Assembly: GCF_009931435.1 (NCBI RefSeq)
Contig: NZ_CP043414.1
Direction: 5' to 3' (one strand)
DNA length: 64,000 nucleotides
Source of the DNA: Escherichia coli
Lineage (GTDB): Bacteria > Pseudomonadota > Gammaproteobacteria > Enterobacterales > Enterobacteriaceae
In this document: piece by piece, positions 28,838 to 62,289 of the stretch
Numbering within the stretch: the stretch's first letter is position 1
Layout: each line of letters starts with the position of its first letter
Program-made: the position numbers and the translations under genes
Notes under the pieces: model-generated
Seen by the model: the letters and a program-made list of their open reading frames with translations, nothing else
Database searches by the model: none
Told to the model about the DNA's origin: nothing

Positions 28838-30874
28838 ATGGATACGCCACGCCCACAGTTATTAGATTTTCAATTTCATCAGAATAACGACAGTTTTACT
28901 CTACGTTTTCAAGACCGTCTTATTTTAATCCATAGCAAAGATAATCCTTGCTTATCGATTGGCTCAGGTATAGCGGATATCGATATGTTCCGCGGTAATT
29001 TCAGCATTAAAGATAAATTGCAGGAGAAGATTGCGCTCACCGACGCCATCGTCAGCCAGTCACCGGATGGCTGGTTAATCCATTTCAGCCGTGGTTCTGA
29101 CATTAGCGCCACGCTGCGTATCTCTGCCGACGATCAGGGCCGTTTATTGCTGGAACTACAAAACGACAACCATCACCACAACCGCATCTGGCTGCGTCTT
29201 GCCGCACAACCAGAGGACCATATCTACGGCTGCGGCGAACAATTCTCCTACTTTGATCTGCGCGGCAAACCGTTCCCGCTATGGACCAGTGAACAAGGCG
29301 TTGGTCGCAACAAACAAACCTATGTCACCTGGCAGGCCGACTGCAAAGAGAACGCGGGCGGCGACTATTACTGGACTTTCTTCCCGCAGCCTACTTTTGT
29401 CAGCACGCAGAAGTATTACTGCCATGTTGATAACAGTTGCTATATGAACTTCGACTTTAGTGCCCCGGAATACCATGAACTGGCGCTGTGGGAAGACAAA
29501 GCAACGCTGCGTTTTGAATGTACTGATACATACATCTCCCTGCTGGAAAAATTAACTGCCCTGCTGGGACGTCAGCCAGAACTGCCCGACTGGATTTATG
29601 ACGGGGTAACGCTCGGCATTCAGGGTGGGACGGAAGTGTGTCAGAAGAAACTGGACACCATGCGTAACGCGGGCGTGAAGGTCAACGGCATCTGGGCGCA
29701 GGACTGGTCCGGGATCCGTATGACCTCTTTTGGCAAACGTGTGATGTGGAACTGGAAGTGGAACAGTGAAAACTACCCACAGTTAGATTCCCGCATCAAG
29801 CAATGGAAAGAAGAAGGCGTGCAGTTCCTCGCCTACATCAACCCGTATGTTGCCAGCGATAAAGATCTCTGCGAAGAAGCGGCGCAACATGGCTATCTGG
29901 CAAAAGATGCCTCTGGCGGTGACTATCTGGTGGAATTTGGGGAGTTTTACGGCGGCGTTGTCGATTTGACCAATCCTGAAGCCTATTCCTGGTTTAAAGA
30001 GGTCATCAAGAAAAACATGATCGAATTGGGCTGCGGCGGCTGGATGGCAGATTTTGGCGAATATTTGCCGACCGATACGTATCTGCATAACGGCGTTAGC
30101 GCCGAAATTATGCATAACGCCTGGCCCGCACTGTGGGCGAAATGTAACTACGAAGCCCTTGAAGAAACGGGCAAGCTTGGCGAGATCCTTTTCTTTATGC
30201 GCGCCGGTTCTACCGGTAGCCAGAAATACTCCACCATGATGTGGGCGGGCGACCAGAACGTCGACTGGAGTCTGGACGATGGCCTGGCGTCGGTTGTTCC
30301 GGCGGCGCTCTCGCTGGCGATGACCGGGCATGGCCTGCATCACAGTGACATTGGCGGTTACACCACCCTGTTTGAGATGAAGCGCAGCAAAGAGCTGCTG
30401 CTGCGCTGGTGCGATTTCAGCGCCTTCACGTCGATGATGCGCACCCACGAAGGCAACCGTCCGGGCGACAACTGGCAGTTTGACGGCGACGCGGAAACTA
30501 TTGCCCATTTTGCCCGTATGACCACCGTCTTCACCACCCTGAAACCTTACCTGAAAGAGGCCGTCGCGCTGAATGCGAAGTCCGGCCTGCCGGTTATGCG
30601 CCCGCTGTTCCTGCATTACGAAGACGATGCGCAGACCTACACCCTGAAATATCAGTACCTGTTAGGCCGCGACATTCTGGTCGCTCCGGTGCATGAACAA
30701 GGCCGTAGCGACTGGACGCTCTATCTGCCGGAGGATAACTGGGTCCACGCCTGGACAGGTGAAGCGTTCCAGGGCGAGGAAGTTACCGTTAATGCGCCCA
30801 TCGGTAAACCGCCGGTCTTTTATCGCGCCGATAGCGAATGGGCGGTACTGTTCGCGTCGTTAAAAAGCATCTAA
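28838..30874 (+). CDS. yihQ: Sulfoquinovosidase (GH31 alpha-glucosidase family)
   Basis: 678 aa ORF MDTPRPQLLDFQFHQNNDSFTLRF...; GH31-like WAQDWSG region. Confidence 0.95.
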   Translation: MDTPRPQLLDFQFHQNNDSFTLRFQDRLILIHSKDNPCLSIGSGIADIDMFRGNFSIKDKLQEKIALTDAIVSQSPDGWLIHFSRGSDISATLRISADDQGRLLLELQNDNHHHNRIWLRLAAQPEDHIYGCGEQFSYFDLRGKPFPLWTSEQGVGRNKQTYVTWQADCKENAGGDYYWTFFPQPTFVSTQKYYCHVDNSCYMNFDFSAPEYHELALWEDKATLRFECTDTYISLLEKLTALLGRQPELPDWIYDGVTLGIQGGTEVCQKKLDTMRNAGVKVNGIWAQDWSGIRMTSFGKRVMWNWKWNSENYPQLDSRIKQWKEEGVQFLAYINPYVASDKDLCEEAAQHGYLAKDASGGDYLVEFGEFYGGVVDLTNPEAYSWFKEVIKKNMIELGCGGWMADFGEYLPTDTYLHNGVSAEIMHNAWPALWAKCNYEALEETGKLGEILFFMRAGSTGSQKYSTMMWAGDQNVDWSLDDGLASVVPAALSLAMTGHGLHHSDIGGYTTLFEMKRSKELLLRWCDFSAFTSMMRTHEGNRPGDNWQFDGDAETIAHFARMTTVFTTLKPYLKEAVALNAKSGLPVMRPLFLHYEDDAQTYTLKYQYLLGRDILVAPVHEQGRSDWTLYLPEDNWVHAWTGEAFQGEEVTVNAPIGKPPVFYRADSEWAVLFASLKSI

Positions 30875-37882: not shown

Positions 37883-39706
37883 TTAATCGTCTTTCGGTGC
37901 GCGGTTGGCGCGACGACGATCGTTTTCCGTCAGGTGACGTTTACGAATACGGATAGAGGTCGGAGTCACTTCTACCAGTTCGTCATCATCGATGAACTCC
38001 AGAGCTTGTTCCAGAGTCATGCGGATAGGCGGAACCAGAACAACGGCTTCGTCAGTACCGGAAGCACGCATGTTGGTCAGTTTCTTACCGGTCAGACAGT
38101 TTACAGTCAGGTCGTTAGAACGGCTGTGAATACCGATAATCTGACCTTCGTAAACTTCTGCACCGTGACCGAGGAACAGCTTACCGCGATCCTGCAGACC
38201 GAACAGCGCGAACGCGACCGCTTTACCCTGACCGTTAGAGATCAGTACGCCATTCTGACGCTGACCCACTTCGCCCGGACGTACGTCGTCGTAGTGGCTG
38301 AAGGTGGAGTACAGCAGACCAGTACCGGAAGTCATGGTCATGAACTCAGAACGGAAGCCAATCAGACCACGGCTTGGGATCACGTAGTCGAGACGTACGC
38401 GGCCTTTACCGTCTGGATTCATGTTTTTCAGGTCGCCTTTACGTTCGCCCAGCGCCTGCATTACAGAACCCTGATGCTGTTCTTCAACGTCCAGAGTCAC
38501 GTTTTCATACGGCTCTTGTTTACGACCGTCAATTTCACGGAAGATAACTTTCGGACGGGATACCGCCAGTTCGAAACCTTCACGACGCATGTTTTCGATC
38601 AGAACAGACAAGTGCAGTTCGCCACGGCCAGAAACGCGGAACGCATCGGCATCTTCGGTTTCTTCTACGCGCAGCGCAACGTTGTGTACCAGTTCTTTGT
38701 TCAGACGATCCAGGATCTGACGAGACGTTACGAACTTACCTTCTTTACCGCAGAACGGTGAGGTGTTAACGCAGAAGAACATAGAAACGGTCGGCTCATC
38801 AACGGAGAGTGCCGGCAGCGCTTCAACGTTTTGCGTGTCGCAAACGGTGTCAGAAATGTTCAGTTCGCCCAGGCCCGTGATCGCCACGATATCGCCAGCT
38901 TCCGCCAGATCGGTTTCGATACGTTCCAGACCGAGGTGGCCCAGCACTTTACCGACTTTCGCGTTGCGGGTTTTGCCTTCGCTATCGATGATAGTAACTT
39001 GCTGGTTCGGCTTCACTTTACCGCGCTTGATGCGGCCAATGCCGATAACGCCAACATAGCTGTTGTAATCGAGCTGAGAAATCTGCATCTGGAACGGACC
39101 GTCAAGGTCAACGTCCGGCGCAGGAACGTGGTCAACAATTGCCTGATACAGCGGGGTCATGTCTTCTGCCATATCTTCGTGGTCCAGACCCGCGATACCG
39201 TTCAGCGCAGAAGCGTAAACGATCGGGAAGTCCAGCTGCTCGTCAGTCGCGTCGAGGTTAACGAACAGGTCGAATACCTGATCCACAACCCAGTCAGGAC
39301 GCGCGCCAGGGCGGTCAACTTTGTTGATAACAACAATTGGCTTCAGGCCGTAAGCAAACGCTTTTTTGGTTACGAAGCGCGTTTGCGGCATCGGGCCGTC
39401 AAATGCGTCAACCACCAGCAGCACTGAGTCTACCATGGACATTACACGTTCAACTTCACCACCGAAGTCGGCGTGCCCCGGGGTATCAACGATGTTGATA
39501 CGGTAATCATTCCATTTGATAGCGGTGTTTTTCGCGAGGATGGTAATCCCACGCTCTTTCTCCAAATCGTTGGAGTCCATCACGCGCTCTTGGGTTTCGG
39601 CACGAGAGTCGAACGTACCGGATTGTTGGAGCAGCTTGTCTACCAGGGTGGTTTTACCATGGTCTACGTGCGCGATGATGGCGATATTACGCAATTTTTC
39701 GATCAC
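37883..39706 (-). CDS. typA: Ribosome-dependent translational GTPase TypA/BipA
   Basis: 607 aa [29 protein letters not shown]... with EF-G-like GTPase motifs. Confidence 0.95.
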
Positions 39707-39856
39707 AACTTTGCCTCAGGCATTAGAAATAGCGCGTTATTGTACACGGATTAATCGCACTACAAAACAGGATCACAAACATCCTCCGCAAACAAGTATT
39801 GCAGAGTCCCTTTGTGATCGCTTTCACGGAGCATAAAAAGGGTTATCCAAAGGTCA

Positions 39857-39905
39857 TTGCACCAATATGGTGCTTAATGTTTCCATTGAAGCACTATATT
39901 GGTGC
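39857..39905 (+). promoter_or_regulatory. NtrC (NRI) enhancer binding sites upstream of glnA
   Basis: Palindromes TGCACCAATATGGTGC (39857-39872) and GCACTATATTGGTGCA (39890-39905), plus further TGCAC/GTGCA half-sites up to about 39950. Confidence 0.7.
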
Positions 39906-40078: not shown

Positions 40079-41488
40079 ATGTCCGCTGAACACGTACTGA
40101 CGATGCTGAACGAGCACGAAGTGAAGTTTGTTGATTTGCGCTTCACCGACACCAAAGGTAAAGAACAGCACGTCACTATCCCTGCTCATCAGGTGAATGC
40201 TGAATTCTTCGAAGAAGGCAAAATGTTTGACGGCTCCTCGATTGGCGGCTGGAAAGGCATTAACGAATCCGACATGGTGCTGATGCCAGACGCATCCACC
40301 GCAGTGATTGACCCGTTCTTCGCGGACTCTACCCTGATTATCCGTTGCGATATCCTTGAACCAGGCACCCTGCAAGGCTATGACCGTGACCCGCGTTCCA
40401 TCGCGAAGCGCGCTGAAGATTACCTGCGTTCTACTGGCATTGCCGACACCGTACTGTTCGGGCCAGAACCTGAATTCTTCCTGTTCGATGACATCCGTTT
40501 CGGCGCGTCTATCTCCGGTTCTCATGTTGCCATCGACGATATCGAAGGTGCATGGAACTCCTCCACCAAATATGAAGGTGGTAACAAAGGTCACCGTCCG
40601 GCAGTGAAAGGCGGTTACTTCCCGGTTCCGCCGGTAGACTCTGCTCAGGATATCCGTTCTGAAATGTGTCTGGTGATGGAACAGATGGGTCTGGTTGTTG
40701 AAGCCCATCACCACGAAGTAGCGACTGCTGGTCAGAACGAAGTGGCTACCCGCTTCAATACCATGACCAAAAAAGCTGACGAAATTCAGATCTACAAATA
40801 TGTTGTGCACAACGTTGCACACCGCTTCGGTAAAACCGCGACCTTTATGCCAAAACCGATGTTCGGTGATAACGGCTCCGGTATGCACTGCCACATGTCA
40901 CTGTCTAAAAACGGCGTCAACCTGTTCGCTGGCGACAAATATGCAGGTCTGTCTGAGCAGGCGTTGTACTACATTGGCGGCGTAATCAAACACGCTAAAG
41001 CAATTAACGCCCTGGCAAACCCGACCACCAACTCTTACAAGCGTCTGGTCCCGGGCTACGAAGCACCGGTAATGCTGGCTTACTCTGCACGCAACCGTTC
41101 TGCGTCTATCCGTATTCCAGTGGTTTCTTCTCCGAAAGCACGTCGTATCGAAGTCCGTTTCCCGGACCCAGCGGCTAACCCGTACCTGTGCTTTGCTGCC
41201 CTGCTGATGGCCGGTCTTGATGGTATCAAGAACAAGATCCACCCAGGCGAAGCCATGGACAAAAACCTGTATGACCTGCCGCCAGAAGAAGCGAAAGAGA
41301 TCCCACAGGTTGCAGGCTCTCTGGAAGAAGCACTGAACGAACTGGATCTGGACCGCGAGTTCCTGAAAGCCGGTGGCGTGTTCACTGACGAAGCCATTGA
41401 TGCGTACATCGCTCTGCGTCGCGAAGAAAATGACCGCGTGCGTATGACTCCGCATCCGGTAGAGTTTGAGCTGTACTACAGCGTCTAA
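40079..41488 (+). CDS. glnA: Glutamine synthetase
   Basis: 469 aa [35 protein letters not shown]... recognised as GlnA. Confidence 0.97.
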
Positions 41489-46180: not shown

Positions 46181-46690
46181 TTAGTTGCCCCGCAGCAGAC
46201 GCATCATGTCTTCTTGCTTCTCGTCTTCTTCCTCTTCTTCGTCATCGTCATAAGAGAGGCCGAGTTTCTGCATCAACTCATCAATACGATCCAGTTTGGC
46301 ATCCACCCAGGATTGCTCTTCGGCGCTCAGGGTTTCGCCTGCCTCCAGACGTTCCAGCAGCGCATCCAGACGCTCATCCGTTTCCAGTAACTCCAACTCC
46401 GCCTGCGGTGAAAGCATAGGTTTCTCACTCTTCGGTTTGTGCTGTTTGGTGACTTTTTCAGTCACGCCCAATGGAATAGGGGTTTTACTGCCAATACGTG
46501 GATCTTTCGGTGCGTTCTGGCCTTTGCTGCCTGACGTGGTGTTACCGCCCGCTGCGCGGCTGCCCGGCGCATGACCACGACGTTTTTTCTGACGCTTACG
46601 GTCACGAGCTTCCTGATCCAGCTCCTCGCGTGTTTTTCGACGCGCTTTTGCATGACCTTTGCTGCGTGAGTTTGAAGATGATGGTTTCAT
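46181..46690 (-). CDS. yihI: Der GTPase-activating protein YihI
   Basis: 169 aa from [19 protein letters not shown]...; very basic N-terminus, acidic C-terminus ([10 protein letters not shown]). The ORF-track start at 46753 would run into the CsrC terminator and is rejected. Confidence 0.9.
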
Positions 46691-46758
46691 AATGGTTCGT
46701 CTTTTAGCCGTTTTATTCAGTATAGATTTGCGGCGGAATCTAACAGAAAGCAAGCAAA

Positions 46759-47001
46759 GAAAAAAGGCGACAGATTACTCTGTCGCCTTTTTTCCTGACT
46801 CATAACCCTTAACGGGTCTTACAATCCCTGCAGGCCGCCAACACACCCTGTTTTTCCATTAGCCGGAACAATCCGTGTTGATTCCATTTCCGTTTAATTA
46901 CGTCTCCGGACGTTTGTCTTCCTGACAATCCTCTGTCTTCGCCTCCTGGCGCTCCTGACCCTCATCCTGAGTCATTGTTCCTGTTAGCGTCCTCGCTCTA
47001 T
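46759..47001 (-). ncRNA. csrC: CsrC small RNA (CsrA-sequestering)
   Basis: Minus-strand sequence reads ATAGAGCGAGGACGCTAACAGGAACAATGACTCAGGATGAGGGTCAGGAGCGCCAGGAGG..., with many GGA motifs, ending in hairpin GGCGACAGAGTAATCTGTCGCC plus U-tract; matches CsrC as I remember it. Ends +/- a few nt. Confidence 0.85.
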
Positions 47002-47271
47002 GGGTGCTACTTTACGCCTTTGCTTTAAACAAACAATCAACCGCCATCAGTATTTGCACATTTTCAGAGTTTTATATAAAAGCAATTAACTGATTTATAT
47101 AGCTTATTTGACATGCATCGCAGAATTTTCTCTGCTATTTCGCATAAAGACTATCGGCAATGTCTCACAAAGCGTATGGCTTTTACTTACAACGCTCACG
47201 CCGAAAAATCCGCCTTTTATTATGGTTCAGGTATAATCGCCGCAAAGCTTTGACTGACGGAGACGACCGCT

Positions 47272-47904
47272 TTGACTAATTTGAATTATCAACAGACGCA
47301 TTTTGTGATGAGTGCGCCTGATATTCGCCACCTACCTTCCGATACCGGAATTGAAGTGGCTTTTGCAGGCCGTTCCAACGCAGGTAAATCCAGCGCGCTG
47401 AACACGCTGACTAACCAGAAAAGCCTGGCGCGGACCTCAAAAACCCCAGGGCGCACCCAGCTTATCAACCTGTTTGAAGTGGCTGACGGCAAGCGTCTGG
47501 TTGACCTGCCCGGCTATGGCTACGCGGAAGTCCCGGAAGAGATGAAGCGCAAATGGCAGCGCGCGCTCGGCGAGTACCTCGAAAAACGTCAGAGCCTGCA
47601 AGGCCTGGTGGTACTCATGGATATTCGCCATCCGCTGAAAGATTTGGATCAGCAGATGATTGAGTGGGCGGTAGACAGCAATATCGCCGTGCTGGTGCTG
47701 CTGACCAAAGCGGACAAACTGGCAAGCGGCGCACGTAAAGCGCAATTGAATATGGTGCGTGAAGCGGTGCTGGCGTTTAACGGTGATGTGCAGGTTGAAA
47801 CGTTCTCTTCGCTGAAGAAGCAAGGCGTGGACAAGCTGCGGCAGAAACTGGATACCTGGTTTAGCGAGATGCAGCCTGTAGAAGAAACGCAGGACGGCGA
47901 ATAA
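47272..47904 (+). CDS. engB: Ribosome biogenesis GTPase EngB (YihA)
   Basis: 210 aa ORF starting at TTG ([23 protein letters not shown]...); G1 motif GRSNAGKSS. Confidence 0.9.
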
Positions 47905-47998: not shown

Positions 47999-48107
47999 TA
48001 AAAAACGCCCCAGTCATTACTGACTGGGGCGGCTAAAATATTCAGCCAAATCCGATTACGTGAAGTAAAAGGTCTGAAAGATAGAACATCTTACCTCTGT
48101 ACCCTAC
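47999..48107 (-). ncRNA. spf: Spot 42 small RNA
   Basis: Minus-strand sequence GTAGGGTACAGAGGTAAGATGTTCTATCTTTCAGACCTTTTACTTCACGTAATCGGATTTGGCTGAATATTTTAGCCGCCCCAGTCAGTAATGACTGGGGCGTTTTTTA recognised as Spot 42; lies just downstream of polA. Confidence 0.9.
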
Positions 48108-48254
48108 GCGACTAACTTTACTCTTTTTTGTTCAGTTCAGAAAGCATTTTTTGTAATTTTTTTTCAGTTGTTGCATAGGAATTTCTAATAGCCATCACAA
48201 AACGTGACAGCTTATGTTGCTTACTTACGAAAAAAGGGCATGTTCAGGCGAATC

Positions 48255-56592: not shown

Positions 56593-57092
56593 TACCGTTA
56601 CTCGCCTTTGCCGCGTGGAGTGGCACTGGAAAAACTACGCTGCTGAAAAAACTGATCCCGGCATTATGCGCCAGAGGGATCCGTCCAGGGCTGATTAAGC
56701 ATACGCACCATGATATGGATGTTGATAAACCGGGCAAAGATAGCTATGAGCTGCGCAAGGCTGGCGCGGCACAAACCATCGTTGCCAGCCAGCAGCGATG
56801 GGCCTTGATGACGGAAACACCAGACGAAGAAGAGCTGGATCTACATTTTCTCGCAAGTCGAATGGATACCTCAAAGCTGGATTTGATTCTGGTCGAAGGG
56901 TTTAAGCATGAAGAGATCGCAAAGATTGTGCTGTTTCGCGATGGAGCCGGACATCGACCGGAAGAATTAGTGATAGACAGACATGTTATTGCTGTAGCCA
57001 GTGATGTGCCGCTTAATCTTGATGTCGCGTTACTGGATATTAATGATGTTGAGGGGCTGGCTGATTTTGTGGTGGAGTGGATGCAAAAGTAG
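56589..57092 (+). CDS. mobB: Molybdopterin-guanine dinucleotide biosynthesis adapter protein MobB
   Basis: P-loop GTGKTT; start taken at [19 protein letters not shown], overlapping the mobA stop (an alternative ATG lies at 56574). Confidence 0.9.
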
Positions 57093-57094
57093 GC

Positions 57095-57130
57095 TGGATA
57101 AGATGCGCCAGCGTCGCATCCGGCATGATT
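57095..57130. repeat. REP-like palindrome downstream of mobB
   Basis: GATAAGATGCGCCAGCGTCGCATCCGGC. Confidence 0.5.
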
Positions 57131-57142
57131 TTCTGCACCAAT

Positions 57143-57176
57143 GCAAAAAGGCCATCCGTCAGGATGGCCTTTCGCT
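57143..57176 (-). terminator. rrnA operon terminator hairpin downstream of 5S rRNA
   Basis: Minus-strand reads AAGCGAAAGGCCATCCTGACGGATGGCCTTTTTGCA: GC stem plus U-tract immediately 3' of rrfA. Confidence 0.6.
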
Positions 57177-57183
57177 TAATTTG

Positions 57184-57303
57184 ATGCCTGGCAGTTCCCT
57201 ACTCTCGCATGGGGAGACCCCACACTACCATCGGCGCTACGGCGTTTCACTTCTGAGTTCGGCATGGGGTCAGGTGGGACCACCGCGCTAAGGCCGCCAG
57301 GCA
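57184..57303 (-). rRNA. rrfA: 5S ribosomal RNA
   Basis: 120 nt matching E. coli 5S rRNA on the minus strand (TGCCTGGCGGCC...GGAACTGCCAGGCAT), with one apparent difference near the 5' end (CTTAGCG rather than the CGTAGCG I recall). Confidence 0.95.
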
Positions 57304-57396
57304 AATTCTGTTTCATCAGACCGCTTCTGCGTTCTGATTTAATCTGTATCAGGCTGAAAATCTTCTCTCAATCCGCCAAAACATCTTCGGCGTTGT

Positions 57397-60301
<2,905 letters not shown>

Positions 60302-60484
60302 TCACAACCCGAAGATGTTTCTTGCGATTCATCATCGTGTTGCGAAAATTTGAGAGACTCACGAACAACTTTCGTTGTTCAGTGTTTCAATTTTCAGCTT
60401 GATCCAGATTTTTAAAGAGCAAAACTTCGCAGTGAACCTTTGCAGGTACACTCTGAAGTATTTTTTATTTAATCACTACAGAGA

Positions 60485-60560
60485 TGGTGGAGCTATGCGG
60501 GATCGAACCGCAGACCTCCTGCGTGCAAAGCAGGCGCTCTCCCAGCTGAGCTATAGCCCC
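60485..60560 (-). tRNA. alaT: tRNA-Ala (UGC), 16S-23S spacer
   Basis: Reverse complement is GGGGCTATAGCTCAGCTGGGAGAGCGCCTGCTTTGCACGCAGGAGGTCTGCGGTTCGATCCCGCATAGCTCCACCA. Confidence 0.97.
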
Positions 60561-60602
60561 ATAACATGTAGTTAAAACCTCTTCAAATTTGCGGTGCAAA
60601 TT

Positions 60603-60679
<77 letters not shown>

Positions 60680-60747
60680 GTAGAGGTTTTACTGCTCATT
60701 TTCATCAGACAATCTGTGTGAGCACTGCAAAGTACGCTTCTTTAAGG

Positions 60748-62289
<1,542 letters not shown>

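Follow-up and report, generated by a model that had tools for sequence, protein, structure and literature searches.

The segment 46756..47001 (minus strand) of the window, by which we mean the whole stretch of DNA analysed (64,000 nucleotides), is with near certainty csrC, carried by a chromosome of the Escherichia coli lineage. In E. coli the global regulator CsrA has two main antagonists, of which CsrC, the product of this gene, is one; at the engB-yihI locus it is an already-known, ordinary small RNA.

The identification is based on a comparison of the entire 64 kb with the 4,227 families of Rfam, each at its gathering threshold, in which the CsrC family (RF00084) matched 46748..47001 (-) with a score of 280.1 bits (gathering score 61; E 2.1e-88). 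This match spans the model from end to end (positions 1-255 of 255) with posterior probabilities close to the maximum, and when the consensus pairs of RF00084 were threaded on the window sequence, all 59 proved canonical and none non-canonical. In E. coli K-12 MG1655 the ncRNA gene csrC (b4457; 4051036-4051281, 246 nt) lies between yihA and yihI and maps to window positions 46756..47001; upon alignment, the complete engB-yihI intergenic region is 99% identical to that of MG1655. It has been reported that csrC is always found near yihA and yihI, i.e. that it has a conserved neighbourhood (PMC1488887). Given the 99% identity to a curated K-12 ncRNA, a discrete transcript of about 245 nt would be expected from this locus. 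The features of the region are as follows.

46756..47001, minus strand: csrC, the CsrC small RNA; +1 at 47001, 3' end placed by equivalence to K-12 b4457 (246 nt)
46757..46796, minus strand: Rho-independent terminator of csrC, AGGAAAAAAGGCGACAGAGUAAUCUGUCGCCUUUUUUCUU; detected by a terminator scan (18-pair stem with 7 G-C pairs, 4-nt loop, T-rich tail)
46793..46992, minus strand: array of 14 GGA motifs, presumptive CsrA-binding sites; defined by counting, chance controls and placement on the Rfam structure
47009..47036, minus strand: putative core promoter of csrC, with -10 TAAAGT (47009..47014), -35 TTGTTT (47031..47036) and a 16-nt spacer; proposed from hexamer scoring (7/12)
47152..47169, minus strand: predicted UvrY-binding 18-nt imperfect inverted repeat TGTGAGACATTGCCGATA, at -168..-151 from +1; verbatim match to the published E. 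coli csrC sequence (PMC4682653)
47186..47191, minus strand: TGTAAG half-site, 16 nt upstream of the inverted repeat, spaced as described in PMC4682653
47272..47904, plus strand: engB / yihA, ribosome-biogenesis GTPase, the divergent upstream neighbour; defined by its ORF and the aligned K-12 yihA start at 47272
46181..46690, minus strand: yihI, Der GTPase-activating protein, the downstream neighbour; ATG start at 46690, 169 aa, placed by the K-12 and PGAP annotations, the alignment to NCBIfam NF003560 and cross-genus in-frame stops

A preliminary description of this DNA had placed a minus-strand RNA at 46759-47001, within the 581-bp gap between engB and yihI, had taken it for CsrC, and had named comparison with the Rfam CsrC covariance model as the deciding one. 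The full-length match (280 bits against the threshold of 61), the 99% identity to K-12 csrC and the yihA/engB-yihI locus all bear this out; the 5' end given there was exact and the 3' end lies at most 3 nt from the K-12-based annotation. The RNA gene and yihI are encoded on the same strand, with 66 nt between the 3' end of CsrC and the yihI ATG.

That the window belongs to the E. coli lineage is evident from the 701 bp surrounding csrC (46600..47300), which find a match in 5,425 of the 5,426 complete E. coli genomes compared, with at least 95% identity in nearly all of them. The region around csrC is absent from one complete E. coli genome (both 46600..47300 and 46748..47001 were compared). 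In NZ_CM149864.1, no more than 58% of the 701-bp query is covered and there are three matching places, a pattern that could reflect a rearrangement or an insertion near csrC. The same comparison of E. coli genomes located two matching places for the csrC region on plasmids.

The anatomy of the predicted transcript is shown by these analyses to be that of a CsrA sponge, i.e. a series of short hairpins and linkers that would expose GGA motifs, preceded by a putative UvrY site and closed by a strong terminator. The 243-nt RNA-sense sequence folds with a minimum free energy of -84.9 kcal/mol, compared with a mean of -57.8 +/- 4.1 for shuffled sequences (z = -6.6), and none of the 200 shuffles was as stable. 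The shuffles, both for folding (200) and for GGA content (5000), preserved the dinucleotides. The 14 GGA motifs, 8 AGGA and one AGGGA among them, stand at CsrC RNA positions 10, 21, 35, 47, 56, 71, 80, 95, 111, 117, 128, 145, 175 and 207; when they are placed on the Rfam consensus structure, six fall within hairpin loops and five within unpaired linkers, and the other three are located fully or in part in stems. Since the csrC sequence is purine-rich, its shuffles already contain many GGA motifs (9.1 on average, sd 2.0), and 77 of the 5000 reach 14; measured against its own dinucleotide composition, the excess is thus only moderate. The genomic background is much lower: all 243-nt windows on both strands of the 64 kb contain a mean of 3.05 GGA, and the maximum of 14 is found at csrC alone. 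Both the many GGA motifs in predicted loops and the strong intrinsic terminator (46796..46757 on the minus strand) had been noticed in the preliminary description, and neither observation needs to be revised.

The next-highest GGA density in the window was found at 29500..29860 (+), with 12 motifs in 361 nt. This segment lies inside a long ORF (whose translation includes ...GIWAQDWSGIRMTSFGKRVMWNWKWN...), and it served as a negative control; as a candidate CsrA sponge it was rejected, being coding sequence within that ORF.

Upstream of csrC, the organization agrees with what has been described for E. coli. Using ChIP-exo and footprinting, Zere et al. placed UvrY at the weakly symmetric 18-nt repeat TGTGAGACATTGCCGATA, within a region extending from -223 to -143, and described both a TGTAAG half-site another 16 bp upstream and a proximal UvrY crosslinking region at -49 to +32 (PMC4682653). 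In the window, the inverted repeat at -168..-151 falls within the former region, while the latter spans the putative core promoter. The sequence of the site predicts that transcription of csrC would depend on the BarA-UvrY system. A sigma-70 consensus scan of 46600..47300 returned no promoter, the 7/12 score of the csrC hexamers being below the scan threshold; such a weak core promoter would fit a gene that depends on an activator.

Compared with K-12, the csrC of the window carries two substitutions, each of which adjoins a GGA and leaves its core intact. At RNA position 144 the window has U where K-12 has A (AAAGGAA to AAUGGAA), with the loss of one AGGA, while at position 174, in a GGA-bearing loop, it has G in place of A (CAAGGAU to CAGGGAU; plus-strand C at 46828). 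Position 174 is A in K-12 and in the best-matching E. coli genome, and no complete E. coli genome among the 5,424 compared carries G174, each of them differing from the window in a 57-nt probe centred on 46828; in the aligned sequences from other genera, G is the commonest state at this position. Over the surrounding 20 kb, identity to the closest of the complete E. coli genomes is only 98.9%, and CsrC shows one private change in 254 nt. Because this is below the expectation from 98.9% identity, CsrC is better conserved than its neighbourhood and the private G174 is unremarkable. The variant does hint that the lineage of the window, perhaps Shigella or a divergent Escherichia clade, has no representative among the genomes compared.

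Relatives were sought in other Enterobacteriaceae by scanning species-representative genomes for the 16-mer AGCGCCAGGAGGCGAA. At least 120 loci were recovered, most of them in unrelated, largely G+C-rich taxa and lacking CsrC context; by a rough estimate, about 140 chance matches to a 16-mer are expected in 298 Gb. Among the matches listed, 15 were Enterobacteriaceae loci, of which one labelled E. coli was left out and the 14 from other genera were used. They represent seven genera (Citrobacter, Enterobacter, Kosakonia, Pluralibacter, Pseudescherichia, Superficieibacter and Pseudocitrobacter). A full-length CsrC is present in all 14 (140-275 bits), and each of these orthologues has kept 13-15 GGA; a Vibrio cholerae locus from the same 16-mer scan gave no match to the CsrC model. 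The gene order is equally stable: yihI follows on the same strand, 53-64 nt beyond the point where the CsrC model ends, in 14 of 14 loci (15 of 15 when the window is included), and engB lies divergently upstream in all 12 loci long enough to reveal it, the remaining two of the 14 being too short to show engB.

The window and the 14 loci were combined into a 15-sequence alignment. RNAalifold run on the raw MAFFT alignment recovered a partial structure (46 pairs), because the 5' third was misaligned in the most divergent sequences, and the Rfam structure was therefore projected onto the alignment. In register, 88.9% of cells pair, compared with 39-47% after a shift of the 3' partners by 1-3 columns, and compensatory double changes occur at six pairs. 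In the terminator helix (helix 10), 12 of 16 pairs are invariant across the 15 loci and 98.7% of cells are paired. Conservation across the genera tracks the stems and GGA loops and not a codon pattern. The covariation supports the CsrC fold, although, with sequences so close and many pairs invariant, this support is modest and would not be decisive alone.

Current annotation of this region deserves comment. The preliminary description had foreseen that the RNA would be missed by protein-only annotation, and this is what we found upon opening a RefSeq PGAP record: NZ_CP023820.1 contains no csrC or spf RNA feature in the region, and in place of csrC it has, at 4388882-4389048 (equivalent to window positions 46809..46975, -), a pseudo-CDS described as 'hypothetical protein; frameshifted; internal stop'. 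Among the top-listed genomes of E. coli, 'hypothetical protein' is likewise the only feature beneath the CsrC match. It seems that a non-coding RNA was here miscalled by protein homology and that the pipeline has propagated the spurious call.

A second correction concerns the start of yihI. The mechanical ORF list begins this gene at TTG 46753 (190 aa), whereas K-12 and PGAP annotate 510 nt (169 aa), i.e. window positions 46181..46690, with a product starting MKPSSSN. Position 2 of the NCBIfam YihI equivalog (NF003560) aligns to residue 23 of the 190-aa ORF, and tblastn alignments from other genera start at, or within a few codons of, ATG 46690. An in-frame stop separates CsrC from the yihI ATG in 9 of the 14 other-genus loci, so the 21-codon extension is not conserved as coding sequence. 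Taken together, these comparisons support ATG 46690, not TTG 46753, as the start of yihI. The suspicion voiced in the preliminary description that the listed start is wrong was hence well founded; the overlap with the terminator mentioned there is slightly inexact, in that TTG 46753 abuts it, lying 3 nt past the annotated end of CsrC and 4 nt past the hairpin (46757-46796), so that any overlap is confined to the 3' tail of the match to the Rfam model (46748-46758). The value of recognizing CsrC here is one of annotation hygiene, in that it would fix an apparently spurious pseudogene and 21 false yihI codons; it adds no new biology.

Three other readings of the locus have to be weighed against that of an RNA gene of the CsrC family. 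The label assigned by the RefSeq pipeline, namely the pseudo-CDS at the equivalent of 46809..46975 (-) and the 'hypothetical protein' of the top-listed genomes, would make the region a decayed protein-coding gene. We find this scarcely credible, since neither strand contains an ORF of at least 40 aa within 46806..47107, each of the three sense frames contains 4-5 stops, the RNA covariance model fits at 280 bits with every pair intact, the curated K-12 annotation is ncRNA csrC, and cross-genus conservation follows stems and GGA loops and has no codon pattern; a search of the 14 other-genus loci for an intact conserved ORF with codon-like substitutions found none. If the element is an RNA gene, it could in principle be a CsrB-type paralogue, acting by the same mechanism and belonging to a different family, as Rfam assigns CsrB and CsrC to one clan (CL00106) and both RNAs present their GGA motifs in hairpin loops. 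The probability of this is negligible, given that the full-length CsrC match was retained after Rfam clan competition, that an element of about 246 nt with 14 GGA contrasts with the 22 GGA of CsrB, that the locus is yihA/yihI and not yqcC/syd, and that the upstream repeat is the weakly symmetric csrC version and not the csrB palindrome TGTGAGAGATCTCTTACA. A CsrB would be recognized by about 22 GGA, the syd locus, and a near-perfect 18-nt palindrome with an IHF site upstream; the element does not fit this description.

The third reading accepts the RNA and changes its role: csrC would act mainly in cis, as a 5' UTR leading into yihI whose terminator is of the attenuator type, and would not be an independent trans-acting RNA. 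The two genes do share a strand, with 66 nt from the CsrC 3' end to the yihI ATG, this tandem arrangement and its spacing are kept in all 14 other-genus loci, and the consensus scan of 46600..47300 revealed no promoter-like site. The scan is, however, crude, and it also missed the promoter of csrC itself; the terminator, with its 18 pairs and U tract, is very strong; and for the CsrC family, experiments have demonstrated a trans action through the sequestration of CsrA (PMC7652899). Moreover, read-through into yihI could coexist with a trans function and would then be an addition to the main reading, not a true alternative to it. We thus judge a mainly cis-acting role to be very unlikely, and retain csrC as a predicted independent, trans-acting RNA. 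The milder proposal, that the conserved csrC-yihI tandem reflects a functional coupling in which part of yihI expression comes from read-through of the csrC terminator, we consider unlikely; the literature search, as judged from its listings, returned nothing on this point. YihI, the GTPase-activating protein of Der, takes part in the biogenesis of the 50S ribosomal subunit, and if such coupling were true, BarA-UvrY signalling would tune not only CsrA but also a factor of ribosome assembly.

Several further RNA features are encoded in the window. The gene of the Spot 42 sRNA (spf; Rfam RF00021, 122.8 bits) is located between engB and polA at 47999..48117 (minus strand); K-12 annotates a small protein, SpfP, inside spf, and a UvrY ChIP-exo signal has been observed near spf as well (PMC4682653). 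Spot 42 is also found about 1 kb further upstream in all 11 other-genus loci long enough to reveal it. A match to the ES222 sRNA (RF02755, 133 bits; 39788..39895, minus strand), present also in a Citrobacter werkmanii locus, is placed directly upstream of a same-strand 607-aa ORF (37883..39706), in the gap before a divergent 469-aa ORF at 40079. Judging by their size and neighbourhood, these ORFs are probably typA and glnA, two genes that appear among the features listed for this region, in which case ES222 may be a typA leader. A selenocysteine insertion sequence (SECIS_3, 84.3 bits) at 10551..10609 (plus strand) implies a selenoprotein gene, probably that of a formate dehydrogenase subunit, whose in-frame TGA would split it in the mechanical ORF track. 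Finally, a complete rRNA operon (16S, two tRNAs, 23S, 5S) occupies 57186..62289 (minus strand), with a StyR-44 match (60309..60417) in the spacer just upstream of 23S and a terminator-like hairpin (57147..57172) followed by REP-like sequence downstream of 5S. RrA-type RNA, binding CsrA and Hfq, has been reported downstream of rrnA, rrnB and rrnD in K-12 (PMC8144298); such an RNA was not evident downstream of the 5S gene in the window, where 56950..57190 (-) contains two GGA and REP-like sequence.

The way in which the CsrC of the window would work may be proposed by analogy with the near-identical K-12 gene. Phosphorylated UvrY, the response regulator of the BarA-UvrY two-component system, would activate transcription of csrC, and the resulting RNA would bind several CsrA dimers through its GGA sites (PMC7652899, PMC4682653). 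CsrA dimers are known to prefer GGA sites in hairpin loops, with the SELEX consensus RUACARGGAUGU (PMC7652899, PMC4682653). By sequestering the protein, CsrC would antagonize CsrA regulation, as in the experiments performed with K-12 CsrC (PMC7652899), and CsrB, judging from work in the same strain, would do the same job (PMC7652899, PMC4682653). Turnover of CsrC in K-12 requires RNase E, PNPase and CsrD, and its trigger is unphosphorylated EIIA-Glc, formed when glucose is available (PMC7652899, PMC4682653); the CsrC described here would probably be removed in the same CsrD-dependent manner when a preferred carbon source is present.

Among known systems, CsrB (RF00018), the RsmY and RsmZ RNAs of Pseudomonas and further RNAs that sequester CsrA or RsmA (clan CL00106) follow the same principle as CsrC, in which many GGA motifs in short loops and linkers titrate CsrA or RsmA, and they share with it both activation by BarA-UvrY (GacS-GacA) and an intrinsic terminator. 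Nevertheless, the CsrB and CsrC sequences are too different for a homology search to recover one from the other (PMC1488887). CsrB is longer than CsrC, carries 22 GGA and adjoins syd; the UvrY site of csrB is the near-perfect palindrome TGTGAGAGATCTCTTACA and IHF is needed, unlike at csrC, which has no such requirement (PMC4682653). The closest counterpart is the CsrC of K-12, with which the element of the window has in common its locus, strand relations, 5' end, terminator, UvrY inverted repeat and the whole architecture of hairpins and GGA motifs.
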